The notes beneath the pieces were generated by a model that did no database searches, had not been told where the DNA came from, and saw only the letters and a list, made by a program, of their open reading frames with translations. Position numbers and translations under genes: made by a program. A stretch of 62,550 nt of DNA, counting the filler. It is 8 parts of 8 records of this genome, joined end to end, with 100 filler letters (N's around TTAATTAATTAA, not from the genome) between each part and the next. Parts side by side here need not be neighbours in the genome. Positions count along the whole stretch, not along the records: positions 19,811 to 25,374 come from SRR31147125_33408; 7 more parts are not named here. One strand, given 5' to 3'. Positions 5,241 to 43,293 of this stretch are shown here, one piece after another (position 1 is the stretch's first letter; each line of letters starts with the position of its first letter).

Positions 5241-5340
5241 NNNNNNNNNNNNNNNNNNNNNNNNNNNNNNNNNNNNNNNNNNNNTTAATTAATTAANNNN
5301 NNNNNNNNNNNNNNNNNNNNNNNNNNNNNNNNNNNNNNNN
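5241..5340. other. Artificial contig linker (N44-TTAATTAATTAA-N44)
   Basis: Identical linker recurs seven times; gives stops in all six frames. Confidence 0.99.
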
Positions 5341-12444: not shown

Positions 12445-12544
12445 NNNNNNNNNNNNNNNNNNNNNNNNNNNNNNNNNNNNNNNNNNNNTTAATTAATTAA
12501 NNNNNNNNNNNNNNNNNNNNNNNNNNNNNNNNNNNNNNNNNNNN
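12445..12544. other. Artificial contig linker
   Basis: N44-TTAATTAATTAA-N44. Confidence 0.99.
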
Positions 12545-19265: not shown

Positions 19266-19611
19266 TGGTGGAGACGGCGGGTATCGAACCCGCGTCCGAA
19301 AAGGGGCGCTGATAAGCCTCTACATGCTTAGCTGTCTGATTTAATAAGTGCTCAGACTCCCAGCAGCAGGATTCATCACACTGTTCCACAATTAATTTCG
19401 CTTCCTTCACCCTGCGGAGAGGTTCCGGTCGCTATCCCACTGTTTGACGCCCTGTCTGCAGCCGTGAGAATACCACAGCAGGACGAGCAGCTTACGCTGC
19501 TAAAGCAAAATTATTTTCTGCGTTTCGTTTGTTTGGGCTTTTTACGAGGCCAGCCCACCTCGGCATGCATCTTAAAAGTTCCATCCTCCCCGTCAAAACC
19601 ATGTCGTCCCC
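19266..19611 (-). ncRNA. ssrA: tmRNA
   Basis: 5' GGGGACGAC…, 3' T-arm GGTTCGATACCC…GTCTCCACCA; tag ORF AENNFALAA* at 19521-19492. Confidence 0.96.
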
Positions 19612-19710: not shown

Positions 19711-19810
19711 NNNNNNNNNNNNNNNNNNNNNNNNNNNNNNNNNNNNNNNNNNNNTTAATTAATTAANNNNNNNNNNNNNNNNNNNNNNNNNNNNNNNNNN
19801 NNNNNNNNNN
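19711..19810. other. Artificial contig linker
   Basis: N44-TTAATTAATTAA-N44. Confidence 0.99.
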
Positions 19811-19811
19811 T

Positions 19812-20393
19812 TTTTCGTCAACCCATTTTGGAGCGTTGTTGATTCAGTTTCCCTGGCGTTTTAAATATAGTCGACAAAATGCCGATTATGTCGCAAAGTT
19901 GTTGACAGCGTTTTATCCTATTGCAAGTGTTGTCGAATTTAGACATACCAGTTGGGTTAAAACAGAAACATTTGCCCTGTTACAGGATCATAATTCCGGC
20001 TTTGTTAATATCGATCAACCTCTTATTTCTGATTCTATCGCGCCTTCTGCCCATCTTATTGGGGATATTGGTTATATACGCTTCCACGGTCGTAATGAAG
20101 CAAACTGGTTTAATGAAAATGCCGGACGGGATGCCCGTTATGATTACTTGTACAGTGATACTGAAATAAAAACATGGATCCAATTAATTGATAGTATAGC
20201 AAAAAATTCAAGCAAGACGTTTGTTGTTTTTAATAACCACTTTAGAGGACAAGCAGTCATCAATAGTTTGCAACTCTTGAATAAAGTGGAACATAAAGAA
20301 ATCGTTGCACCTGATACACTATTGAATATATTTCCAGAACTGAAATCTATTTGCAGGGGTGAGTCTTCCCAACAGACACTTGATTTATTCTGA
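19812..20393 (+). CDS. DUF72-domain protein, 5'-truncated
   Basis: LIQFP, VEFRH.SW, YIRFHGRN, YDYLYS, FNNH. Confidence 0.92.
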   Translation, partial: FSSTHFGALLIQFPWRFKYSRQNADYVAKLLTAFYPIASVVEFRHTSWVKTETFALLQDHNSGFVNIDQPLISDSIAPSAHLIGDIGYIRFHGRNEANWFNENAGRDARYDYLYSDTEIKTWIQLIDSIAKNSSKTFVVFNNHFRGQAVINSLQLLNKVEHKEIVAPDTLLNIFPELKSICRGESSQQTLDLF

Positions 20394-20539
20394 TATGTTT
20401 ATACTAATTTTCTATTATAACATGTCCTGAATAAAAGATTTTTTTGAAAAAATAGTATAGATTCATAAAATGTGAATACTTTTCTATCGTTGTGCATCTT
20501 ATTAATAATGACTATTAACACTATATAAATGGAGTATTT

Positions 20540-20698
20540 ATGGATTCGATAGGTGTGATTCTTTTTTTCATTATCTGGTTTGTGATGATGAAAGTTATAT
20601 TCCCAAAGATGGGAGTCCAGACCTGAATGTCAGCGTCATGTCATCTTCCGGAGGAAGAAACGAAAACAACTCAAGTAGACCATACAAAGAAAGATTAG
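20540..20698 (+). CDS. Small single-TM protein, candidate selenoprotein (UGA at codon 29)
   Basis: GGAG RBS; MDSIGVILFFIIWFVMMKVIFPKMGVQT-TGA(20624-20626)-MSASCHLPEEETKTTQVDHTKKD-TAG; absent from the ORF track. Confidence 0.7.
20627..20662 (+). promoter_or_regulatory. SECIS-like hairpin 1
   Basis: TCTTCC-GGA-GGAAGA stem-loop at 20644-20658; loop G lies 24 nt after the UGA. Confidence 0.55.
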
Positions 20699-20720
20699 GA
20701 ATTTATAGGAGAACGTTTAA

Positions 20721-20936
20721 ATGCCACTTTACGAGTACAAGTGTGATAACTGTGGACATATATTCGAAGTTTTTCAAAGCATTAATGCTGATAGTAAAGA
20801 TCTGACCTGTCCGCATTGTCAGGCTGCAAATCCGGAAAGAATATTTTCCGTGTTTGCTTCTTCGGGAAACAGTCCGGATTATGGCTCATCGTCCGGTTCC
20901 GGTTGCGGATCGGGTGGATTCACCTGAGGATTATAA
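20721..20936 (+). CDS. FmdB-family zinc-ribbon protein, candidate C-terminal selenocysteine
   Basis: MPLYEYKCDNC…CPHC; ends GCGSGGFT-TGA(20925-20927)-GGA-TTA-TAA. Confidence 0.85.
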
Positions 20937-20962
20937 AAAAGTTAGGTAACTTTTTAAATATC
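20928..20962 (+). promoter_or_regulatory. SECIS-like hairpin 2
   Basis: AAAAAGTT-AGGT-AACTTTTT at 20936-20955 with outer GAT/ATC pairing; loop begins 16 nt after the UGA. Confidence 0.55.
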
Positions 20963-21076
20963 AAATTCAACTTGCTTTTAACAGCATATTTTGTATTTTT
21001 ATGGCAAGCAGTAAACTCTAATAAAGAGTAACCTGTTTGCCATTTTTTTTTCAGAGAAAAATAGTGACCATATGAT

Positions 21077-21547
21077 ATGATTACTTTAGACATTCCTGGT
21101 CTCCAATCTTATAAAATAGAAAATCTTGTTCTGGATGTTAATGGGACGCTGGCTATAGATGGCAATCTTATTCCCGGCGTCAAGGAACGTCTGAGCCAGT
21201 TATCTCATCTGGTTCATATTTTTATGTTAACAGCTGATACTCACGGCAGGCAGGATTATATAGATAAGGAACTGAACTTAAAGTCTGTTCGCATAAACCG
21301 GGAAAATGAAGCACAGCAAAAAGAAGCGTTTTTAATAGAATGTGGGCCTGAATCGACTATTGCCATAGGTAATGGTGCAAACGACGTGCTCATGATTCGA
21401 AAAGCAGCCATTGGAATTGTACTGATTCAGGAGGAAGGGGCTTGTTTGCGCACGATTTCCAGTGGTATGATTGTATTCAAGAATATAGTACATGCTCTTG
21501 ATGCGCTTGTTTATCCGAACAGGATTATTGCAACACTCAGAAGATAA
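21077..21547 (+). CDS. HAD-family hydrolase (soluble P-type ATPase-like)
   Basis: LDVNGT, LTADT, IGNGANDVLM. Confidence 0.9.
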   Translation: MITLDIPGLQSYKIENLVLDVNGTLAIDGNLIPGVKERLSQLSHLVHIFMLTADTHGRQDYIDKELNLKSVRINRENEAQQKEAFLIECGPESTIAIGNGANDVLMIRKAAIGIVLIQEEGACLRTISSGMIVFKNIVHALDALVYPNRIIATLRR

Positions 21548-21594
21548 ATATTTTTATGATCCGAATAAACTTATTATTTGTTTAGGAGCTATAC

Positions 21595-22746
21595 ATGCAC
21601 TGCATTTATAAAATTTTCATGCTATTAATGTTGGTTATTCCAACAATGTCTCATGCCCAGCGAATTACGTCAGCAAAAGAATGTCAGGAGTGCCATAAAG
21701 ATATTTATGCTGAATGGAATACGTCAAGGCATGCTGCCTCGAATGCGGCTTTAAATCCTTTTTATGCTGCTATGCTCGAATGGGCAAAAAAAGCATCAAA
21801 CAATAAATTAGAAGCCCAATGTGAGAAATGTCATGAACCAGCCATAAGCATGGTGATGGATCCATTGCTGGCAAAATCCACGGTGAAACAAGGTGTTACA
21901 TGTGATATATGTCATGCTACAAAGATTGTTGATCAAAATAAAGGATCATGGTTTGAATTGCAGCCAGGCAATGTAAAATATGGACCCATTGAGGATGCTG
22001 TTTCAAATTCTCACGAATGCGTGTATTCACCGGATCACAAAGAAAGCTCATTTTGTTTGACCTGTCATTCAAACGCAGAAACACCTCACGGCATTTCTTT
22101 TTGCTCTACTGAGAAAGAATATAAGCAAAGCTCATTTGCGAAACTTGGCGTTAGTTGTCAGGATTGTCACATGCCTTCTGTAGAAGGGAAAGCAGCCTTT
22201 CTTGGAAAAATCAGAGATGAAATTCATTCACATAAATTTTATGGGGGATACACAGATAATTTTTTACATAACTGTGCAGATGTGGAACTGGAAATACATC
22301 CAAAAAATGAAAAAATTAATGTAAAGATTAAAGTTACAAACAAGACAGTCGGGCATGCTCTGCCAACAGGTTCACCCATGAGAATGGTTTTGCTATCTTT
22401 GGAAGCCCTTGATGAGGATAACAATGCTGTCTGGAAGAATTGGTATTCCAATCCACTTTTAGAAGATACACAATCTGTATTTATGCGATTACTGGAAGAT
22501 AAAAATGGTAATGCCCCGGTTCCTCCCTGGGAAGCTGCCAGGGAAAGATATGATCAACGTCTTTTACCTGATGAAACCCGAATCCTGGAATATCAATTTT
22601 CTGATACGTCAGCTGTCCGTCTTGTTGCTACTCTTATTTATCGTCTTGCTCCACCTCCTTTATTAAAAAAACTGGGTATAACAGATGAACTTTATACCAG
22701 GCCCAAAAAAATCGTCAATAAATCTATTGTAATCACCGGGCAATAA
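21595..22746 (+). CDS. Secreted pentaheme cytochrome c (c554-like)
   Basis: Signal peptide; CQECH, CEKCH, CDICH, CLTCH, CQDCH; GHALPTG. Confidence 0.9.
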   Translation: MHCIYKIFMLLMLVIPTMSHAQRITSAKECQECHKDIYAEWNTSRHAASNAALNPFYAAMLEWAKKASNNKLEAQCEKCHEPAISMVMDPLLAKSTVKQGVTCDICHATKIVDQNKGSWFELQPGNVKYGPIEDAVSNSHECVYSPDHKESSFCLTCHSNAETPHGISFCSTEKEYKQSSFAKLGVSCQDCHMPSVEGKAAFLGKIRDEIHSHKFYGGYTDNFLHNCADVELEIHPKNEKINVKIKVTNKTVGHALPTGSPMRMVLLSLEALDEDNNAVWKNWYSNPLLEDTQSVFMRLLEDKNGNAPVPPWEAARERYDQRLLPDETRILEYQFSDTSAVRLVATLIYRLAPPPLLKKLGITDELYTRPKKIVNKSIVITGQ

Positions 22747-23087
22747 TTGGAATAATATTAATAAATTATGCATTAAAGTATTTACAGGCAGGTTTGAAAA
22801 ATAAAGACTATTATATCTTTGTGGATGTGTGGAACGTGGGAATCGCCTCATAATTTGTCGTTTAAATTCTAACCGCCCGAAATGACCTCGTTCCTGTCCT
22901 TTGGTTCAATTGACCATTTTAAGCTAACAATATTTTGGTTTTAAAGGCCTTGCAGGATACAGCCTGTACATATGATATAATTCACAACAGACCGAAAAGG
23001 ATTCCAAACAAGCTATAGCAGATATAAAAAAAACAATCTCTCGTGAGATTATAAATAAAATATTTATAATAAGATAGAGAGACAATT

Positions 23088-24196
23088 ATGGAGTTTTTAA
23101 AAAAGTACTTTAATGATGTTGTCATTCTGACGACAATAATAATTGGTTTGGTAGGGGGAACATGGATTTTAAATACAGCCGAAAATCCCGTTTCTGTTGC
23201 TATCTTTTATGCTCTTGCCATTACTTCTTTTACTTATCGTTTTCTAGGCGGGATTGACAAAGATACCGGATTTACCATTGGAGCTATGAAAGCCACAGGA
23301 ACGTTGGCAGCCATGTTCGGTTCTATTTGGCTTATATTCAACTTGAGTCAGGATGCACAGATTACCTCTGCTAATTTTCCTCAAAATTTTCGTCCGAATG
23401 AGATTTTTATGTTTAAAGATACGGGTGAACCAGTAGATTTTACATTCACAACATCTACTAAAGGTGAACAGGATACACTGACATTCGGTTTGTTGCCGAA
23501 AGAGAAATACCGGGAAATTTCCAGAAAACTTATTTTTATTGATGAAAAGGCATATGTTACTACAAAAACGGATTCAATCTATCTCGGATATATTGATATA
23601 GAACGTGAAAAGCTGTCCTATTTTACCATGACAAGCAAACAGAGTCTGGCATTGGGACTTTATTATAGTCAGACAGATAGTGCGACAGGAAAAAGAAATG
23701 ATTCACATCGTGCTGTTGATTATTTATTCAAAGTGGTAAGAGAGTGTAAAGATCAAACATTGATAGAACGTGCACTTAATCAGTTATATTTTTTGCAGCG
23801 TTTTTTTAGGGATGCGGACCAATTTGATCAATTTATAGTGTCCACAAAGAATTTGAAAACAGGTTATAATCTTTATCTGGAACTGGCCGCAACTCATCTT
23901 AATTATTCGCGCAAAATCGCAGATAACAAAATTGAACAAAAGGGTGTGGCCTTGACCTATTATCTAAAATTTCTAAGTACGAAACAAAGTCAGAGTAAAA
24001 ATTTGTCAAAGAGAAAAAAGGTGTCATCGAAATAGTCGAGGAATTGCTCAAGGTTGAGCTCAACAATGAAGAATATATTAAGCAAAACAACAGGAAAGCC
24101 CAGATCCTTGAAGCTATGCGAAAGCATGATCGGGCAAAGCTAAAACAACTGGGTGATGAGCTGGCCATGCATTTTTTAAATGATATGTCCGTTTGA
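23088..24196 (+). CDS. Hypothetical membrane protein (three N-terminal TM helices plus helical domain), probable frameshift near 24000
   Basis: 315-aa ORF; a second frame continues KEKKGVIEIVEELL…FLNDMSV* after A-runs. Confidence 0.55.
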
Positions 24197-24262
24197 GGTT
24201 TTTGGAATATTTATTTTGTTTTTTGGTAGTATAATGAGGAACAAGTAGAGTTTTTGTTTTAC

Positions 24263-25207
24263 TTATCTCAGTTTCCCTTCAATAAAGGGGACCTGAAATA
24301 CTTTTTCATGCATGATTGGTCCATGACCAAAAAAACCATCTTCTCCGAATAACTCGCCATGATCCGAGGTTATTGTTACATATGTATTAGGGGGCAGCAT
24401 ATCAAACAGGCGTTCAACAATTGTATCAATGTATTTGACGGCATGAATTTGTCTTGTATAAAGCTGATCCAGTTTTTTTTGATCAAAAAACTTTTCATTA
24501 TCGTCCTCGACTAATTTCCCTCCGACAATATGGTCATCAAGGTGCTTAAATACTCCATGTACACCGGAAATTCGCGGCCATTCACTCTCTGGTTCGTCAG
24601 GAAGGGCATAAGGATAATGTGTTTCTCCAATATTAAGGAGATAGAAAGAAGGATATTCGTCGGAAAAGTGCATTTTATCCAACATGGCAGCCATGTCATT
24701 ATGTTTATCCATCAGAGTGAACGTATCAAATCCAAAGTTGACAGGCGTTTGCGGATTTAATACGGGTAATGACACCATGGCATGGGTTTTATAGCCCAGT
24801 TTATTTTGCAAAAAAGGTGGGAGATAAAGTGTGGGTACAAGATTCTTAAATTCAAATGCGTCTGTGCCAAATCTTTGTTTAAATTTTATAAAATCCTTTT
24901 TATAATAATCAGAAGCGTAAACATGTGATGGACTAGTGTGAGGAAATAATCCCATAAGTAAATTATAATGTGATGGAGCCGTCCAGGACGCATAAGAGTA
25001 TCGGCATTCCAGGTTGCCGAGTTTCATCATTGTTTGTGGTTGTGCCTTTATCCATGTATCAAAACGGCAGCTGTCCAAAATAATGATGACATAATTATTC
25101 AGATTATTCATCTTTAGAGAAATTTGTGGTTGAACATCGGAAATTGTGGGGCGCTTAAAAACCTTACCCCCGTTTTGAGCCGATTCTTTTTTGCGGAAAA
25201 GTCCCAT
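24263..25207 (-). CDS. Sulfatase-like / alkaline phosphatase superfamily protein
   Basis: LDSCRFD, WTAPSH, ETHYPY, TSDHGE…GHG. Confidence 0.85.
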   Translation of the reverse strand: MGLFRKKESAQNGGKVFKRPTISDVQPQISLKMNNLNNYVIIILDSCRFDTWIKAQPQTMMKLGNLECRYSYASWTAPSHYNLLMGLFPHTSPSHVYASDYYKKDFIKFKQRFGTDAFEFKNLVPTLYLPPFLQNKLGYKTHAMVSLPVLNPQTPVNFGFDTFTLMDKHNDMAAMLDKMHFSDEYPSFYLLNIGETHYPYALPDEPESEWPRISGVHGVFKHLDDHIVGGKLVEDDNEKFFDQKKLDQLYTRQIHAVKYIDTIVERLFDMLPPNTYVTITSDHGELFGEDGFFGHGPIMHEKVFQVPFIEGKLR

Positions 25208-25374: not shown

Positions 25375-25474
25375 NNNNNNNNNNNNNNNNNNNNNNNNNN
25401 NNNNNNNNNNNNNNNNNNTTAATTAATTAANNNNNNNNNNNNNNNNNNNNNNNNNNNNNNNNNNNNNNNNNNNN
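25375..25474. other. Artificial contig linker
   Basis: N44-TTAATTAATTAA-N44. Confidence 0.99.
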
Positions 25475-27567: not shown

Positions 27568-28599
27568 ATGAAACAGTGCGAAATTCCCATGGTATTCGGA
27601 CGCAAATCGGACCTTCCCAAGGTTTACGGCGACACGCCGACATTTCTGGGTGTGCCGAAGCTGGATCTGAATAGCCTTCCCGGTGATCTAGATGCCGTGG
27701 TCGTCGGCGTGCCCTGGGAAGGGACGATCACCTGGGGTTCCTTTACCGGCTGCGAACTTGCCCCCCGCAGCATCCGGCACAGTGCCGCTCGTTATGGGGG
27801 CTTTTTGCCGGAATACGAAATCAACCTGTTTGATCACCTGTGTCTGGGGGATGCCGGAGATATCGCTGTCGAGCCGAACAGCCCGGCTGAAACAATGGCC
27901 CAGGTATGCCGAGGGATGGAGCGGATTTACGCGGCGGGAAGCATTCCCGTCGTTATGGGCGGCGATCATTCCTTCACTCCGGAGGTCATTCAGGCTATGA
28001 CCCGTCACCGTGAAGGCCCGATCGGCATCGTCCACTTTGACGCCCATTTCGATAATGCCAAGGCCTTTGGCGAAGATACTATGCCCCGCTGTGGACCGCT
28101 CCACCGGATTGCCCAGATTCCGCAGGTGCGGACCCAAAGCATTGCCCACGTGGCTATTCGCGGGCCGCGCAATTCTCCGGCCCAACTGGCCTATGCGCGG
28201 GAAATGGGGGCCAGTGTCTTTACCATGCGGGATATTAGGAAGCGAGGGATGGAGAAGGTGATCGAGGAAGTGATCCAGGTCGCCCGGCAGGGGACCGAGC
28301 AGGTTTACGTCACTATCTGCAGCGACTGCATCGATGCGGCCTTTAATCCCGGCGGCCCGGCTGATTTCAACGGATTGTTCGCCCACGAGTTGTTTTCAGC
28401 GCTCTACCGTCTGGGAGAGTGCGGCATCGCCGGGCTCGATTTCGTCGAAATCTATCCCCAACAGGACCCCAACGGCTTTTCCTCCCACTTGGCGGCCTGG
28501 GCTATTATTCATGCCCTGGCCGGACTGGCCGAGGGAAAACGGTCGAACAACGGAGAGAGCGGCGGGGGGCAGGCATCCCTTTCCGGCAAGGAGGTTTAA
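27568..28599 (+). CDS. Agmatinase/arginase-family amidinohydrolase
   Basis: GGDHS, HFDAHFD, SDCID. Confidence 0.9.
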   Translation: MKQCEIPMVFGRKSDLPKVYGDTPTFLGVPKLDLNSLPGDLDAVVVGVPWEGTITWGSFTGCELAPRSIRHSAARYGGFLPEYEINLFDHLCLGDAGDIAVEPNSPAETMAQVCRGMERIYAAGSIPVVMGGDHSFTPEVIQAMTRHREGPIGIVHFDAHFDNAKAFGEDTMPRCGPLHRIAQIPQVRTQSIAHVAIRGPRNSPAQLAYAREMGASVFTMRDIRKRGMEKVIEEVIQVARQGTEQVYVTICSDCIDAAFNPGGPADFNGLFAHELFSALYRLGECGIAGLDFVEIYPQQDPNGFSSHLAAWAIIHALAGLAEGKRSNNGESGGGQASLSGKEV

Positions 28600-28601
28600 G
28601 G

Positions 28602-29746
28602 ATGGATTTTACCCTTTCACAGGATCAGACGGAGCTCAAGGATGCGGTCATCGGTTTCGCCCAGCGAGAACTCACTGACGATCTGGCCGAACGGGAGAAA
28701 AAGGGGAATTCTATTGGGAAGGGTGGCGCAAATGCGCGGAGTTCGGGCTTTTGGGAATGCCGGTGCCGGAGCGCTACGGCGGCCTCGGCCTTGATCCCCT
28801 GTCCTGCGTTGCGACTCTCGAAGGTCTTGGCTATGGCTGCCGCGACCATGGCCTGGTATTCGCCCTCAATTCTCAGCTCTGGACCTGCATCAAGCCGATC
28901 CTGGGTTTCGGCAGCGATGCCCAAAAGGACAAATATCTGCCCTCCCTGATCCGGGGGGAACTGGTCGGCGGTCACGCCATGACCGAGCCGGATGCCGGGT
29001 CCGATGCCTTCGGCATGCGCTGCCGGGCGCGGAAAGAAGGGGATCGCTACATCCTGAACGGGACCAAGATGTTTATTACCAACGCGCCGATCGCCGACCT
29101 CCTGCTGGTGTTCGCCGTGACCGACCCTGACAAAGGGTTTGGCGGCATCTCCGGCTTTATTGTGGAGAAAGATTTCCCCGGTTTCTCGGTCGGCCGGCCT
29201 TTGGAACTGATGGGTTTGAAGACTTGCCCGCTCGGCGAGGTCATTCTGCAGGATTGCGAGGTTCCCGAGGAAAACCGATTGGGGAAGGAAGGGGCGGGCA
29301 CTGCTATTTTTAATGCCGAGATGGAATGGGAACGGGGTTGTCTTTTCGCCGCTCACCTGGGAGCGATGCAGCGGACCATGGAGGAGACGATCCGCTATGC
29401 TCAGGAGCGGGAGCAGTTCGGCCAGCCGATCGGCAAGAATCAGGCGATCTCCCACAAGGTTGCCGACATGGCCGTGCGGATCGAACTGTCCCGCCTGATT
29501 CTTTATAAGGTGGCCTGGATGAAAGGGGACGGACAGCGCGCACCGTTGGAATCGGCTATTGCCAAGCTCTTCGTCAGCGAGAGCTACGTTCAGAACAGTC
29601 TCGATGCGTTACAGATCCATGGTGCCTACGGCTATTCAGCCGAGTACGATATTGAGAGGCACGTCCGCGATTCCCTGGCGGGACGGATTTACTCCGGAAC
29701 CTCGGAAATCCAGCGTAATATCATCTCCAGTTTTCTGGGGCTGTGA
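28602..29746 (+). CDS. Acyl-CoA dehydrogenase family (prolyl-PCP dehydrogenase-like), frameshift near 28700
   Basis: MDFTLS start after GGAGG; AMTEPDAGSD, GTKMFITN, QIHGAYGY, IYSGTSEIQ; frame changes at the AAAAAGGGG run. Confidence 0.88.
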
Positions 29747-29763
29747 TATCGGAGGGAAGGCCT

Positions 29764-30759
29764 ATGAAGCCTTATCTGTTGCACCAACTGCTCACGGAAA
29801 GTGCCCGAAAGCACCCGCATCGGCCGGCGGTAGTCCAGGGAGAAAATTCCCTGACCTTTGCCGAACTGGAGACCCTGAGCAACCGTTTCGCGGCCATCCT
29901 CGCTAACCTCGGTGTGAAGGCGGGAGAGCGGGTAGGGATACTGCTGAATAAGTCTCCGGAAGTGGTTATTGCCATCTACGGCATTCTCAAGGCGGGCGGG
30001 ATCTATGTGCCGCTCGATCACCTTGCCCCGTCGGGGCGTCTTGCCGGTATCCTGGAGCGTTGCGACATCTCGGTCCTGGTCACCTCGTCTCGCTTAGCCT
30101 CTGGGATTCTGGCGGAGCCTTTGGCCGCCGACCAACTTTGCAGCCTGATTCTGGCCCCAGGCGACGAGTTTTCCGCAGCAGGAAAAATCTGTTTGCCTTG
30201 GGATGAGGTGCTGGCCGCATCTCCTGATCCGCTGCAAACAGAAGCAACGGCTGACACTCGACCGGCCTACATCCTTCATACTTCGGGCTCAACCGGCATA
30301 CCAAAAGGGGTTGTCATCTCTCACTTGAACGCGTTGACCTTCGTCCGCATGGTGAGTGATTTCTTCGCCATCTCCCCGGAGGATCGTTTGGCCAGCCATG
30401 CCCCTTTCCATTTCGATCTGTCGGTTTTCGATCTGTTCGCGGCCTGCGCCAATGGCGCGGCGGTCGTTCTGGTTCCGGAGACCCTTGCCATATTTCCATC
30501 CCGCCTTGCAGAGTTCATGGGTCGTACCGGGATCACCATATGGAACTCGGTGGCTTCGGTTGTCGCCCTGTTGGCCGAGCACGGCCGGCTGGAACAATTT
30601 TCTTTCGATGCCCTGCGACTGGTCCTTTTTTCCGGGGATGTTCTTTCCGCCAAACACCTGCGTCGGGTTATGGAGAGGATGCCCAAAGCGATCTTCTATA
30701 ATCTCTACGGCCAGACAGAGGCCAATTCCTCAACGTTCTACCGGGTGGAGGGCCTTCCC
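29764..30759 (+). CDS. Standalone amino-acid adenylation domain, 3'-truncated
   Basis: YVPLD, YILHTSGSTGIPKG, FDLSVFD, NLYGQTE. Confidence 0.9.
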
Positions 30760-30859
30760 NNNNNNNNNNNNNNNNNNNNNNNNNNNNNNNNNNNNNNNNN
30801 NNNTTAATTAATTAANNNNNNNNNNNNNNNNNNNNNNNNNNNNNNNNNNNNNNNNNNNN
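30760..30859. other. Artificial contig linker
   Basis: N44-TTAATTAATTAA-N44. Confidence 0.99.
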
Positions 30860-30949
30860 CTTTTCCCCACGCCCGTGGGGATGATCCGTGCGAACCATTT
30901 CGAATACCTGATCCGTTCCACTTTTCCCCACGCCCGTGGGGATGATATG
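30860..30949 (+). CRISPR. End of a type I-E-like CRISPR array (two 29-bp repeats, one 32-bp spacer)
   Basis: CTTTTCCCCACGCCCGTGGGGATGATCCG at 30860-30888, spacer 30889-30920, degenerate repeat ending GATATG at 30921-30949; CCCCAC/GTGGGG palindrome. Confidence 0.88.
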
Positions 30950-31185
30950 ACAATGGCAGAGGCAACATGCTAAACCCTGCAATAAATTTTTTATCTCTTT
31001 CCTTGACAGAATTATTTCTGAAAGATAATGCTAACATTGTTCAATGGCCATAACCGGACTCTCCACTCCAAAACAAAGCATCGGCATCTCACATCAATAC
31101 CCCCTACCTAAAGTTGAGATGCCCGGCGAACGAGATTCCAGCAAAGCCACTCACCTTAACGCATTACATAGTTTGAGGAGTTTCC

Positions 31186-33920
31186 ATGAAGAAACAAGGA
31201 AGGTTGCTGAAAAGTCTATTGGTATGGACAACAGGATTATATGTCCTATTGATGAGCGCCGGAGGCATCATGGCGGATACCTGCGCTACAATGGATCAGG
31301 ATTTAACGCTGTCACTCCCTTGCGTTGAATATGAAGGAACCCAATTGATGCTTCCTTTGGTTCCATATGAAAATCCAAACGCCCAAACTCCGTTCGAATT
31401 TTACTGGACATTGGGTAACATCAGCCTACTTGAGGCGGACCCAAATTGCGCATCCCTATCGATCCCATCGGATTTGACCATCACATTGCCGTGTATCAAC
31501 TATTACGGAACCCATATGAAAGCGACCCTACTACCGATCCTATCCGATCCGTCGCAGATCATGTGGAAACTTGACCTCAACTCTCTTGATCTATTGAACT
31601 TACCCGTCACGACCACTCGGGATGAAAAAGGCGTGTGGTTCATCACCGGAGATGAAAATGCAGATCTCTACACAACCTTTGAAGCGATGGGATACGCAGT
31701 TGCTTCAGATCGCCTATGGCAGGCGGAAAAATATCGACGCATGGGCCGAGGCACCCTTGCCGAAATTTTTGGGGAAGGCCAGCTTCAAAGCGATATTCAA
31801 GTGCGTACCACCGGATATTCCGATGAAGAATATGAGCAGCTGTTTGATGAACTGGATCTGGAGACCCAATCGGTCATCAACGGCTATGTCGCCGGGTTTA
31901 ACAGAAGAATTGCCGAAGTGACCGAAGATAGAAGCCAACTTCCTTTTGAATTCCATGCCTTGGGCGCTTCATTGGGTATCGACTTGATACCGGCACCATG
32001 GACAACCACCGATATCCTGGCGTGGGCCACCAACATGCTTCGTTACTTTGACGGGGAAGCCACTGAACAAGGCCAGATAGACAACCTGGCCCTCTATCAG
32101 ACACTTCAGGCTTCATATCCGGAAGATTATCAAGCCATGTTCCAGGACATGAGATGGGAAAACGACCCTGATGCCACCACATACATCGCCAAGAAGAGTG
32201 CCCCGTCAATCACATCGAATATTGAAAAGAATTTTTCGGATCTTTTCGACCTTTCTTGTGATTTCCAAGAGATCTCAAACGAAATGGAAGCAACCCATGA
32301 GGCCATTGTCGCCAACCTTAAAGAGATCAACGCCTATGTAAAAATGGGAAGTTATGCCTGGGTCGTTTCCGGTGATAAAACCCAAAGCGGTAACCCCATC
32401 CTCTATTCCGGTCCTCAAATGGATCACGCCTTTGACTTTTCTGTTCCTTCCATTGTCACTGAAGGGTCAATCAAAGCGGCCGGTCTCAACATCTCCGGTA
32501 TGACCATCCCCGGCATGCCTGCCGTCGTGATTGGAAGAACGCCCCACCATGCATGGTCTATGCAGGTGGGCCACGCCCATACCTTGGATTATTACATCGA
32601 AGATCCATCTGCAGTGTCTCTTCACCGTATCGAAATCATCAAGGTGGCAGGCGGAGAAGATGTGGAGCTCCCGGTTTACAGAACCGTCCACGGCCCGGTG
32701 ATCAATTCCGATCCTGTCATCTCCTGGAAATATTCCCATTGGGAAAAAGAGCCCGGTATGGTTGCCACATATCTTCATTTGGCAAGAGCGACAACAATGG
32801 ATCAATTTGGGGAGTGTATCGATCAGGTATCTCTCTCCCAGCACTACTGTTATGCCGACAGATATGGAAACATCGCCTATTGGATGTCCGGATTCGATCC
32901 AGAGAGACCTGAAGGTATTGATAGACGGTTTCCACAACCCGGTGATGGAACCGCAGAGTGGGGAGATCCTGTTGTTTATAAAGCTCGCTCCCACGAACGG
33001 AATGCCGCCAGAGGATTCTACAGTGGATGGAACAGCCGCTCCAGTCATGATTATCCAAACGCTGCAAATACCCCTTCCTATTATTTCGGTCCCTTTCACA
33101 GAGGACATATTTTGGAAGATTATCTTTCAAGCCATGAGAGTCTTACCTTTGAGGATGTACGGGATCTTGCGCTTTACATCGCGACAACCGACTCCATCCG
33201 AAATGAGTATCTCGTCTTTGATTTCGACACCTACGGGGATGGGGAAATCCTTGGAAATTCGTGAGTACCGATTTTACCGCTGCAGTTAAAGCCAACGCAA
33301 CAGACAGCAGAACCGCGGCATTGACACTGCTGAATGGATGGGATGGACATTTTGTTAAAGGCGGACAAGAAAACTGGGCCTTTGGAACGGATCGATCCGA
33401 CGCCTGGATCCTCATGAATCAGTGGATCAATGAAGTACTGAAACTCACCTTCTTTGATGAGCTGGGAGATACCGAAAATCGTGTAACTCTTTTCAACATG
33501 CTGTTACACGGCCTTCCGCAATTCAATGCAACCATTCAAAACGCCTACAACTGGTTCCAAAACAGAGTCGACGAATCCGCGCCCCAAACATTGGATGAAA
33601 TTATCGTATCGGGTCTTGACAATGCCCTTGCAGCTCTGGGGGAACAGCCTTGGGGGATAAACAAACGAGGGGAGATGACGTACACCCATGAAATGTTAGG
33701 CGCACTACACAGTATGCCCACAGCGTCCCGCTCTACATATGGGCAGTGTGTGGAAATGGGAAGTGAGGGGCCGGTACGTATTGAGAGTATGTTGCCTTTG
33801 GGGGAATCCGGCACCATTTTGATGGATGCTGACGGCGCTCCGGTGTTCGATCCAAATTTTTTCAGCATGTCGGAAATATATGACGGTTTCCAGCATCGTG
33901 ATTTTCCGTTGAACAATTAA
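31186..33920 (+). CDS. Secreted penicillin acylase family (S45) protein with N-terminal repeat domain; frameshift at about 33243
   Basis: RDEKGV, GYAVASDRLWQ, GSYAWVV nucleophile, RTVHGP; reading continues as GNPWKFVSTDF… after the G4 run. Confidence 0.88.
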
Positions 33921-33946
33921 TATCAATCCTTGACTGCTGCTTGACG

Positions 33947-33982
33947 GCTTGAGCGGTCGATGTCTCAATCAACCGCTCAAGC
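33947..33982. terminator. Inverted repeat between convergent genes
   Basis: GCTTGAGCGGT…ACCGCTCAAGC. Confidence 0.55.
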
Positions 33983-34011
33983 GTATTTCTTGACCCCTCT
34001 TTATTCCATCA

Positions 34012-34610
34012 TCACAAAATCAAACTGCCGCCGATACTCCACATGGTGACGCACACCACACTGTCCAACACTCTCCAGGCCATGGGCTTTTGGAACAGCG
34101 GTCTCAATAAACTCCCCCCAACTCAAAAGAAAGAACCAAACAAACGACGCGGTGATGGCTCCGGCGGCAAAATGGACTTTCTGCGCTCCCAGAAACCGAC
34201 CGGCAATACTGCCCATCAAAAGAAGTGTATCTATATAGACATGGGGGTTGAGCAGCGTCAAGGCAAGGGTCGTCAAAACGGCAGCCTTGAACGTCGCCGT
34301 GGTCACCTGACTCTCCTCCAGCGAGGTCGATCGAAATGCCGACCGAAGAGACAGGGCACCATACCAAAAGAGAAACCCAGCCCCCCCCCCATGTGGCAAG
34401 CCGGGCAAGCTGAGGATTCTCGGAAACAAGGCGTCCCATTCCCGAAACCCCGGCAGCAATGAGGATCGCATCACATACGGCGCAGATGAGCGGGATGATG
34501 ATCCAGTATTGCCGCTTGATTCCTTGGGTCAATACAAATGCATTCTGCGCCCCAATGGCGACAATCAATCCGGCTCCCACTCCAAATCCTTTCAAAAAGA
34601 CCAATAACAT
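34012..34610 (-). CDS. argO: LysE/ArgO amino-acid exporter, two frameshifts at G-runs
   Basis: IVAIGAQNAFVL and LLNPHVYIDT motifs lie in different frames; C10 run at 34381-34390, C6 run at 34114-34119. Confidence 0.88.
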
Positions 34611-34792
34611 TTGTCACCTCCATCTATTTTCCATCCTAAATTTATATCGTTTCGAATCCTCTTGTTTTACTTCATTAAAAGCGCTTATTTCTTGAGACGT
34701 CTCACCGTGAGCAGCAGTATTCAAACAAACGGATCGAGTAAAGTAAAATTAATTGTTTTTATATATAATTAATTTTGATAATAATCATACCT

Positions 34793-35706
34793 ATGATTGA
34801 ACTCAAATTTATGGAAGCCCTTGCAGCGGTTATTGATCAAGGGGGCTTTGAAAAAGCCTCCAAAGTCCTCCACATTACCCAATCCGCCATCTCCCAACGG
34901 GTAAAACAGCTCGAAGAGATGACCGGCCAGATTTTATTGATCCGAAGCACCCCACCGGTTCCCACCGCAGCAGGCACCCGCATCATCAAGCACTTCCGGC
35001 AGATTAAGCAATTGGAAGACGAACTGATTGAAAGCCTCTCTCCCACACGGGAAAAAAATTTACCTCATTGGCCATCGGTATCAATGCCGACAGCCTGGCC
35101 TTTTGGTTTTTGGATGCCGTTATTCCGTTTTTAAGACAGGAATATGTGACGCTGGACATTCGTGTCGACGATCAAGATCAAACCCACAGAATGCTTCGGG
35201 ACGGCGAAGTGTTCGGATGCATCAGCGCCCTTGACGTTTCCGTGCAGGGATGCGGCACCCGCTTTCTCGGGTATATGACCTACCGCCTGGTGGCAACACC
35301 GAAATTTGTCTCCAGATGGTTTCCCAATATCGATCTGTCCGATCCGATAAGAACCTTGGAATATGTTAAGAAAGCGCCGATGCTCATATTCAATCAAAAA
35401 GATGAGCTGCAGCACCGGGTACTTCGAAATGCCTTGAAAACCACCATTCCGGATGACATTCCCATTCACTGCATTCCCTCTTCCGAACAATTTCTCACCT
35501 TTATTGCCGAGGGAATGGCTTACGGCGTTCTGCCGGATATTCAAAGTCGTCCGCTGCTTGAGGCGGGAAAGCTTGTCGAACTGTTTCCCATGCACTCGGA
35601 GCGGGTCCCGCTCTACTGGCACTGCTGGACCATCAAATCCCGCTTTTTGGAACGATTTTCCAATAGTTTTATTGACAATGCATCAACTTTATTGGAATCT
35701 TCTTGA
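34793..35706 (+). CDS. argP: LysR-family regulator ArgP/LysG, frameshift at A7 run
   Basis: HITQSAISQRVKQLE; IGINADSLA; LYWHCW; divergent from argO. Confidence 0.9.
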
Positions 35707-35743
35707 TCCCAATAAATGAAAAGCATCTCAAGAAGATAGAAGT

Positions 35744-35917
35744 ATCACCAATGCCCTGCCCCATGTCAGCCCCTCCATATCCGGCGTGGTACTGTTGGCT
35801 CAGCCGGCCCTGGCGTTTGTGTGGGATGTCCTGTTCTTCAGTCGTCCCACCGATTTTGTGAGCTGGTGCGGGGTGGGGCTCACACTGGTTGCCATCTATC
35901 TGGCCACCAAGCGATAG
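35744..35917 (+). pseudogene. C-terminal remnant of a DMT/EamA transporter
   Basis: ITNALPHVSPSISGVVLLAQPALAFVWDVLFF…AIYLATKR*; no in-frame start, upstream stop. Confidence 0.6.
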
Positions 35918-36238
35918 GTGAGAGAGCTCGCCTATCTCATTGAGTACCATAGAAATAATTTCTGCGTTTTTTTGGCAAGAAATTATCTCGTTGAGGGACT
36001 TATCCGGTTTGGCCGGGTTAGGCGATTCTCATTTCAAAGGCAGTAAACCCCATTCGGTCTATGAACATAGACTTATTTCATTTCAAAATCATTTCAAGCA
36101 TTTGTATTGGAAAAATATCTTGGATTTTTCCCTCTGTTTTTTTTATTTTTCAATTTTCTATTCCCGGTGATTTGCCTTACTTGTGAATCCCCACCCATGA
36201 ACACCGCTTTAAAGCTCAAAAAATCAATGGAGAAATCT

Positions 36239-37273
36239 ATGAAAACACTGTCAAAGACAATCGTCATGCTCACTGTCATGTTAACCGCCGGAATGGCGTT
36301 TGCCAAAGCCCCGTCCGGTGTCGTGACCTTTACCGTCACCCCTGCCGTCACGGAGAATACGGAAACCGTCACTGTCTGGCTCCCCTATCCCATGAGTGAT
36401 GCGTTTCAGACCATCAGTCATATGGAGATCAAGGGAAATTACGGGAAATCAGCCGTTTACCGGGATCCTTCCTCGGAGGCAGTCTATTTTTTCGCTGCCT
36501 GGGACGCCCCTGTGACAGCGCCCCAATGTACCATGCAGTTTCATATCGATCAGAAAAATAGAAAGGACGCCCACCTCAATGAATCCCAAAATGCCTTTCC
36601 TGCCATTGTCACCAAATACCTGAAGGCCACGGAACAGATTCCGGCCGATGATGCCGAGATGAAGGCCATCGCAAAAAAAGCGGTTAAAGGCAAGACAGGC
36701 ACACTTGAAAAGGCAAAGGGAATCTATGACTGGGTGGTGGAGCACACCTACAGAGATCCCAACGTAAAAGGGTGTGGTCTTGGACTTCCCGTAAGAACCC
36801 TCAATCAATGCAGCGGCGGCGGAAAGTGTGCCGATTTGAGTACCGTGTTTGTCACCCTTGCGCGGGCAGCGGGAATACCGGCACGGGATGTTTACGGCCT
36901 TCGCCTCTCTTCCCCAAAAGACGGCGATGTCACCAGCGGATTTCACTGCTGGGCGGAATTCTACCTTCAAGGCACCGGATGGGTGATGGTGGATCCTGCA
37001 GATGTCAGAAAAATGATGTTGGTCCACAAATTGAATCTGGAAGATGCCGATACCGATCAATGGCGGGATTTCTTCTGGGGCGGAGATGATCTGTTCCGGG
37101 TGGTTCTGGAGAAAAATTCACGGGGCGTCTCCCTCAACGGTGCAGATCAAACAGTCAACTATTTCATGTATCCGGCCGCCCAGGTCGACGGCACCATGCT
37201 CAACTACTTTGATGCGGCCGCATTCAGCTACAAAGTGGAATTCAAACAGGATCGACTGGTGGCAGACAAATAA
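36239..37273 (+). CDS. Secreted transglutaminase-like protein
   Basis: Signal peptide; GKCAD, HCWAEFY, W..VDP catalytic triad motifs. Confidence 0.92.
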   Translation: MKTLSKTIVMLTVMLTAGMAFAKAPSGVVTFTVTPAVTENTETVTVWLPYPMSDAFQTISHMEIKGNYGKSAVYRDPSSEAVYFFAAWDAPVTAPQCTMQFHIDQKNRKDAHLNESQNAFPAIVTKYLKATEQIPADDAEMKAIAKKAVKGKTGTLEKAKGIYDWVVEHTYRDPNVKGCGLGLPVRTLNQCSGGGKCADLSTVFVTLARAAGIPARDVYGLRLSSPKDGDVTSGFHCWAEFYLQGTGWVMVDPADVRKMMLVHKLNLEDADTDQWRDFFWGGDDLFRVVLEKNSRGVSLNGADQTVNYFMYPAAQVDGTMLNYFDAAAFSYKVEFKQDRLVADK

Positions 37274-37464: not shown

Positions 37465-37564
37465 NNNNNNNNNNNNNNNNNNNNNNNNNNNNNNNNNNNN
37501 NNNNNNNNTTAATTAATTAANNNNNNNNNNNNNNNNNNNNNNNNNNNNNNNNNNNNNNNNNNNN
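37465..37564. other. Artificial contig linker
   Basis: N44-TTAATTAATTAA-N44. Confidence 0.99.
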
Positions 37565-43193: not shown

Positions 43194-43293
43194 NNNNNNN
43201 NNNNNNNNNNNNNNNNNNNNNNNNNNNNNNNNNNNNNTTAATTAATTAANNNNNNNNNNNNNNNNNNNNNNNNNNNNNNNNNNNNNNNNNNNN
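43194..43293. other. Artificial contig linker
   Basis: N44-TTAATTAATTAA-N44. Confidence 0.99.

Follow-up and report, generated by a model that had tools for sequence, protein, structure and literature searches.

The window analysed here is the whole stretch of 62,550 nt of DNA, filler included, and the gene of interest lies on its forward strand at 20540..20698. The coding sequence consists of 28 codons, an in-frame UGA taken as a selenocysteine (Sec) codon, 23 further codons and a TAG, giving a predicted 52-aa selenoprotein whose homologues align across the TGA. The start ATG is at 20540 and the first 28 codons read MDSIGVILFFIIWFVMMKVIFPKMGVQT. The TGA at 20624..20626 (U29), which corresponds to Cys in homologues and is retained as TGA in metagenome and genome loci, is followed by 23 open codons, MSASCHLPEEETKTTQVDHTKKD, ending at the TAG at 20696–20698. 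On the same strand a ribosome-binding site, GGAG, was read directly at 20531..20534, 5 nt ahead of the ATG, and a promoter-like TTGAAA-16-TAAAAT element upstream of the small gene at 20444..20471 was recognized by its consensus match alone (10 of 12 positions). A single transmembrane helix was predicted for codons 3–23 (20546..20608, forward strand) from AlphaFold2 and hydropathy. The family signature P22-K-M-G25-V-Q-T28-U29-M-S-A-S-C34 was located by pattern match at 20603..20641 on the forward strand, the pattern occurring once in the window and not at all in 100 shuffles. Behind it, at 20644..20658 on this strand, a SECIS-type hairpin with stem TCTTCC/GGAAGA and loop GGA (20650–20652) was identified both by folding and as an inverted repeat. 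A preliminary description of the locus had reported a ribosome-binding site, a 28-codon helix, a TGA and a 23-codon extension, and on direct reading of the sequence each was exactly where it had been placed; the U-x4-C motif that it proposed was likewise confirmed in the read-through frame, being formed by U29 and C34 (TGT, 20639–20641).

Upstream of the small gene is a DUF72 gene (19836..20393, forward strand; PF01904, E 2.2e-29) whose 5′ end meets an N run, and 22 nt downstream is an FmdB-family zinc-ribbon gene (20721..20927, forward strand; TIGR02605, E 7e-19, and PF09723), whose copy here contains only Cys, its frame being uninterrupted by TGA. Two further forward-strand genes were assigned downstream by profile matches, namely a small HAD or soluble P-type-ATPase-like gene (21077..21547) and a multiheme cytochrome c (21595..22746). 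The HAD neighbour is a 156-aa stand-alone protein that resembles the P-type ATPase phosphorylation domain. Relatives with 40–45 % identity were found at 10 loci, in Desulfobacterales, Desulfosudaceae and similar groups, and the small gene was absent upstream of all 10. The cytochrome matched the ExtKL (seleno)protein model NF040886 weakly (73 bits against a cut-off of 250) and lacks an in-frame TGA. Those of its relatives that are named (49–52 % identity) belong to candidate division KSB1, and one other relative is 92 % identical. Because of these named relatives, the lineage of the window probably differs from the phylum sampled below.

A tmRNA with the tag peptide AENNFALAA, on the reverse strand at 19266..19611 in the segment before the N run preceding the small gene, was the sole RNA gene found in the window. 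tRNA-Sec and sel genes were sought within the window and none was found, and no other selenoprotein gene was seen there. N runs are located at 5241–5340, 12445–12544, 19711–19810, 25375–25474, 30760–30859, 37465–37564 and 43194–43293, each interval comprising paired 44-base N runs split by 12 bases and recurring every 5–7 kb. These runs cut several genes, including the 5′ end of the DUF72 gene, sigma-54 activators and an adenylation domain. The stretch may thus consist of short contigs set end to end or be masked at regular sites, so linkage across the runs is not to be assumed. The GC content is 0.32–0.39 at 19750–25000, the AT-rich region around the small gene, against a window mean of 0.41. 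The region 27568–37273 displays many overlapping long ORFs on both strands, mostly with GTG or TTG starts. Acyl-CoA dehydrogenase and adenylation-domain genes are located there, and in composition the region seems to differ from the AT-rich surroundings of the small gene.

Homologues of the read-through peptide were sought with HMMER against 1.84 billion representatives, using a threshold of E≤1e-3. This gave 12 hits (best 2.8e-7), including a 592-aa repeat protein that was dropped as a 14-residue match only. The remaining 11 hits were 49–75 aa in length and aligned to query residues 1–46, i.e. spanning the TGA. A word-index protein search with the single read-through peptide as query returned no candidates. 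Of 446 candidates, at least 228 proteins reached E≤0.01 with the profile built from the 11 homologues. Those listed, 120 in number, were 42–90 aa, contained no Pfam domains and were named 'hypothetical' or bore one automatic label. By name, the Cys-form lineages were Omnitrophota, Myxococcales, Planctomycetota and others. In the ESM Atlas, a natural Cys homologue used as the query retrieved 'hypothetical protein' clusters alone. Two clusters of 29-aa 'hypothetical proteins' there (85 and 111 members) matched residues 1–28/29 of the Cys homologue structurally, and these may be Sec forms cut at the TGA by gene callers.

The family alignment was made from 122 database proteins and the window peptide (123 sequences), and the resulting motif is LP-x-LG-[IV]-P-T-[C/U]-M-S-G-x-C. 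Across the 123 sequences P22, G25 and C34 were invariant, and L16, P27, T28, position 29 (C/U) and G32 were conserved at 90 % or more. At the column of the window's TGA, where the preliminary description proposed to look for TGA or Cys in homologues, Cys was present in 117 of the 122 database proteins, Trp in four and Ser in one. Conservation, which it proposed to check downstream as well, continues past the UGA not only at G32 and C34 but across the M-S-G-x-C stretch, which is kept in the Cys forms.

These homologues bear directly on whether the TGA is an ordinary stop, in which case the gene would encode a 28-residue membrane micro-protein and the downstream frame and hairpin would be non-coding, for example an RNA stability element. 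Since 13 of the 54 large ORFs of the window end at TGA, this codon is an ordinary stop in the window, which is consistent with such a reading, as is the observation that the hairpin by itself is not significant; the 29-aa ESM Atlas clusters further indicate that truncated products are at least called. However, the 117 database homologues continue through the position with Cys, and the DNA-level searches also oppose termination. In metagenome DNA, a pattern was used in which the critical codon was TRR, so that TGA, TAA, TAG and TGG were all permitted, and which also demanded ATG, W-S-N, G-S-N and TGY downstream of the TRR. Because it fixed codons after the stop, the loci were pre-selected for part of the downstream motif. 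The scan gave at least 121 stretches, with TGA in 121 of the 121 matches listed and TAA, TAG or TGG in none, and all 121 listed had a hydrophobic helix ahead of the motif and an open frame behind it. Homologues ending with TAA or TAG, which the preliminary description had named as an outcome contrary to Sec, were thus absent among the metagenome matches listed. The metagenome sources of the small gene were soil, sediment and sludge. In one metagenome contig (L061) the small Sec gene is present twice, as nearly identical copies at 33–71 and 984–1022, approximately 950 bases apart.

As a test without the downstream bias of the pattern, whole genomes were searched in six frames with the family profile. 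A match was found in 183 of the 401 sampled genomes (~46 %) of one phylum, that of G002 (Desulfosudaceae), and a TGA lay inside the alignment in all 150 genome matches listed, with 37 further matches existing. Among the genomes reached via the HAD loci, two of five had a small-gene match. A DNA pattern for the Cys version gave no matches in the 401 genomes; this pattern was too narrow, its TGA version fitting none of 32 known loci. Codon usage behind the TGA was compared among 139 distinct Sec sequences: Ser at +2 was encoded by TCN in 85 and AGY in 45, and Cys at +5 by TGC in 88 and TGT in 50. Because Ser and Cys are retained through varied synonymous codons, from both codon families in the case of Ser, selection downstream of the TGA is judged from these comparisons to act at the protein level. 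This retention likewise opposes an ordinary stop, which we consider very unlikely.

The position directly after the TGA is relevant to a further alternative, in which two coupled cistrons are translated, first the 28-aa peptide and then, by re-initiation at TGAATG, a separate 23-aa Cys peptide. An ATG does adjoin the TGA in 137 of the 139 Sec forms, as this would predict. However, this Met is also kept in the Cys forms, which are fused and would require no restart, and CTG or GTC occupies the position in the other two Sec forms, which argues against a restart. Likewise, neither the exclusive use of TGA nor a G-loop hairpin at fixed distance would be predicted by coupling, and this alternative is given only a slim chance. 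A pseudogene is also conceivable, as a single base change turns TGT or TGC into TGA and a gene for an ordinary small protein might have lost its Cys codon (TGY) in this way. Such an event is hard to reconcile with a TGA and intact downstream frame in 121 of 121 metagenome and all 150 genome matches listed, or with the family-typical hairpin of the window (loop GGA, offset 26), and a pseudogene is regarded as highly improbable.

The four homologues with Trp at the TGA column raise the question of an alternative genetic code with TGA read as Trp or Gly, and the Trp in these four is presumed to represent TGA under another code. Loci identical to the Trp-bearing homologues were sought among the fetched DNA and were not found. 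TGG occurred in none of the 121 metagenome matches listed, which makes gene calling the likelier source of the Trp residues. Recoding in the window itself is contradicted by the 13 of 54 large ORFs that end at TGA. Read-through of TGA extends the large ORFs by at most 38 residues, and the added parts of the six extended frames scanned contained no family matches. An alternative code is accordingly given almost no credence, and the reading of U29 as Sec is retained in what follows.

The preliminary description had also proposed a hairpin with a loop G 24 nt past the UGA. The sequence there is a perfect 6-bp inverted repeat (TCTTCC at 20644–20649, GGAAGA at 20653–20658, loop GGA), which is contained in the single-sequence MFE fold, and its loop opens with a G 24 bases past the A of the UGA (offset 26 from the U). 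In the bacterial SECIS model quoted in PMC13188914, the first or second base of a small apical loop is a G, and the loop lies 16–37 nt from the UGA. With its 6-bp stem, GGA loop and distance of 24 nt, the window hairpin fits this model. Taken alone it is within chance, with a z-score of −0.20 and 76 of 200 shuffles folding at least as well.

The signal that goes beyond chance is the comparative one. Hairpins were compared across a set of 139 distinct segments (window, metagenome and genome loci), each starting at the TGA and 60 nt long. In 134 of these a hairpin with an unbroken stem of 5 bp or longer was present, and in five it was missing. The loop started at offset 26 from the U of the UGA in 69 of the 139, and the commonest loops were GUC (45/139) followed by GGA (26/139); the position (offset 26) and loop type of the window hairpin are the mode of the 139 Sec loci. 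A combined test demanding a stem of at least 6 bp, a loop start at 19–32 and a G in the first two loop bases was passed by 102 of the 139 downstream segments and failed by 37, compared with 12 of 138 upstream controls of 60 nt and a mean of 4.9 (maximum 11) in composition-preserving shuffles. Hairpins of at least 6 bp were also common upstream of the TGA (93/138), so the discrimination is by position and loop identity only.

On the ungapped alignment A2, 64.5 % of the cells of the named helix were paired, against 46.7 % in shuffles (none of 500 reaching the observed value). Its covariation score was 0.433, against 0.194 in shuffles and no more than 0.203 in slid-partner controls, and all eight pairs varied on both sides. 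RNAalifold predicted no consensus pairs on the fixed-register alignment A2, because the hairpins occupy several registers, with a minority sitting earlier or having longer loops. The string 'DVESRR', frequent after the Cys in Sec forms, is the hairpin in translation and is not conserved in Cys forms. In a sub-clade represented by L131 (1658–1870) and L132 (1668–1871), with the motif U-M-R-x-A-C, the hairpin has an earlier position and takes in the Cys codon; AGGU is one example of its loops.

The presence of Sec machinery in the sampled genomes was assessed from selB (TIGR00475), which scored above the curated cut-off in 372 of 401. Of the genomes holding the small gene, 181 of 183 had a selB hit at E≤1e-30, although, with selB near-universal in the sampled phylum, this co-occurrence is not discriminating. 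Seven of the 401 genomes lacked a selB hit at that threshold, two of them, G020 and G110, being holders of the small gene; in a further five holders (G130, G187, G282, G357 and G405) the hits were only weak, with E from 5.7e-48 to 6.9e-57. Occurrence mainly in genomes lacking Sec machinery, another contrary outcome foreseen for a selenoprotein, was not seen.

Of the genes computed beside the small gene, 92 of 117 downstream neighbours and 85 of 112 upstream neighbours were scanned, those from loci with only 300-nt flanks and upstream ORFs of <70 aa being dropped. No single conserved partner was found across the scanned neighbours. Within the window's sub-clade the FmdB gene is a conserved neighbour on sequence evidence, as it follows the small gene in L018, L046, L063, L072, L073, L077, L143, L148 and L157; as a neighbour family, Zn_ribbon_8 (FmdB) was counted six times, plus four more by motif search (motif in 6/128 loci). 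DUF72 was found twice, upstream of the small gene in L018 and L046 as in the window. The other recurrent neighbours were Rhodanese (5; two downstream, three upstream), Hemerythrin (5, downstream), PLD-type (5, downstream), YgaP-like TM (4; two downstream, two upstream), DUF302 (4; one downstream, three upstream), Acetyl-CoA hydrolase (4, upstream) and HMA (2). Both HMA cases are in L131 and L132, where a CopZ-like HMA gene lies directly 3′ of the small gene on the same strand. Thioredoxin, AhpC/redoxin, desulfoferrodoxin, DsrE, DsbD, a pyridine-nucleotide disulfide oxidoreductase and a CsoR-type repressor each occurred as single cases. These families point to thiol, persulfide or metal chemistry, which we take only as a lead from raw counts.

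The family was compared with existing models and catalogues. The window peptide matched no model in NCBIfam (E≤0.1) or Pfam (E≤0.01), 12 family members gave weak unrelated hits alone in Pfam and NCBIfam at E≤1, and a profile search of the PDB returned insignificant helix matches (E≥0.11). A 2026 inventory comprises 119 prokaryotic selenoprotein families, every one of which is linked to a model from Pfam, NCBIfam, cd or PTHR (PMC13188914). For the comparison with these 119, Pfam and NCBIfam models were scanned, and entries with only a cd or PTHR model were compared by their table description. No U-x4-C motif or small membrane protein is present among the 119 families as tabulated in that inventory, in agreement with the earlier statement that no named family could be assigned. 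Two other resources are BSepDB, with 111 families and built by searching already known ones (PMC13326102), and deep-Sep, which added nine families (PMC12013277). The NCBIfam models of the hypothetical proteins from the latter did not match the small family. Full-text literature on the spacing motif and on small membrane selenoproteins yielded no description of it, and supplements such as BSepDB Table S2 could list it.

With canonical bSECIS genes, the small gene shares an in-frame UGA, Cys homologues and a 3′ stem-loop with G (then G or U) in the apical loop. It differs in that the protein is unrelated to catalogued families and in that approximately a third of the 52-residue coding sequence is inside or after the SECIS, unlike in canonical genes. 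The decoding mechanism is apparently canonical, and the protein itself apparently new to the catalogues compared. Some small families in the inventory are likewise defined by motifs, namely UGSC (NF041046), LULAxC TsoA (NF045695), CC/Se (NF041239) and hypothetical DG, DW and DF (PMC13188914). As described there, these resemble the small family in being short, defined mainly by a Sec motif, bearing Sec/Cys pairs and occurring largely in sulfate-reducing or related anaerobes (PMC13188914). They differ in that their models were unmatched by the 12 members (NCBIfam, E≤1) and that neither U-x4-C spacing nor an N-terminal membrane helix is given for any of the 119 entries.

The window protein was also set beside small membrane selenoproteins of eukaryotes. 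SELENOK and SELENOS are small single-pass membrane proteins with Sec in a non-membrane tail, near the C-terminus, and with the SECIS in the 3′-UTR. The window protein is alike in architecture, whereas its Sec would directly follow the helix and its SECIS is in frame. The Pfam families of SELENOK and SELENOS were unmatched in Pfam scans of the window peptide and members, and the two are regarded as the nearest analogues by architecture, an analogy without homology.

Metal-handling proteins offer another comparison. The HMA motif contains a Cys pair spaced x2. Sec-containing metal-handling families in the inventory are MerT-like PF02411, HMA NF041115, P-type ATPase TIGR01525 and YHS NF041384 (PMC13188914), and they share with the small family a Sec/Cys pair in a short loop beside or within membrane segments. 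No match to these models was obtained in the Pfam and NCBIfam scans. The small family differs from the HMA and MerT types in having no PF00403 or PF02411 match and in its spacing, x4 in the window protein against x2 in HMA. FmdB zinc ribbons (TIGR02605) are given in the same source as a small Cys-rich family with some Sec-containing members (UxxU; PMC13188914), but in the window the FmdB gene is separate from the small selenoprotein in gene and fold, and merely adjacent.

The architecture of the protein was predicted with AlphaFold2 on the 123-sequence alignment A3, which gave a helix at residues 3–23 (block pLDDT 88) and low confidence beyond it; the mean Kyte–Doolittle hydropathy of residues 4–21 was 2.71. 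In the conserved unit of the family the helix leads into P-x2-G-x2-T-U-M-S-G-x-C, and a polar tail that varies completes the protein. The family mean net charge was approximately 0 ahead of the helix and +1.0 to +1.5 over the 30 residues from the conserved Pro, while the net charge of window residues 18–52 was 0. The U/Cys motif is probably on the cytoplasmic face, because of the slightly more positive charge after the helix, a weak positive-inside signal. Homodimer prediction for a Cys homologue scored 0.01 against a mark of 0.32. A lipoprotein or signal-peptide reading was set aside by reasoning, the N-terminus being acidic, not basic, and P-T preceding the Cys.

If decoding proceeds as in canonical bacterial genes, SelB would bring Sec-tRNA(Sec) and bind the hairpin at 20644–20658 with the ribosome at UGA-29, and selenocysteine would be inserted. 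The product would have one N-terminal membrane helix (3–23), followed by the surface motif P-x2-G-x2-T-U-M-S-x-x-C and a short polar tail. For its function, we tentatively put first a U-x4-C selenol/thiol pair that may cycle via a selenenylsulfide, or carry sulfane sulfur or selenium at the membrane, although the odds are somewhat below even. Binding of a soft metal is ranked second and is rather unlikely.

Overall, the preliminary reading of a 52-aa membrane-anchored selenoprotein is supported by sequence comparison, and we place at about 0.9 the probability that 20540–20698 is a gene, complete from start to stop, for a selenoprotein of 52 residues whose family had not been catalogued before. 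The joint claim, that the family is widespread, had not been described and acts at the membrane surface in redox chemistry or trafficking, is favoured with less assurance. It also seems fairly probable that the family is among the most widespread bacterial selenoproteins, missed as a ~50-residue single-pass gene that is dropped or truncated by gene callers, and that it serves as an inner-face relay of sulfane sulfur, selenium or soft metal.

Selenoprotein inventories drive estimates of microbial selenium use. With matches in 183 of the 401 genomes sampled from one phylum and in at least 121 metagenome stretches, the small family is nevertheless absent from the lists in the available parts of PMC13188914 and BSepDB. 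Adding it would alter per-genome selenoprotein counts, would give annotators a simple model and would expose a blind spot of Sec prediction for very short genes. If true, the reading would make the protein architecturally the first counterpart in bacteria of the eukaryotic small membrane selenoproteins, and a 52-codon gene with its SECIS inside the coding sequence would represent a minimal system for Sec insertion and for selenol chemistry at the membrane surface.
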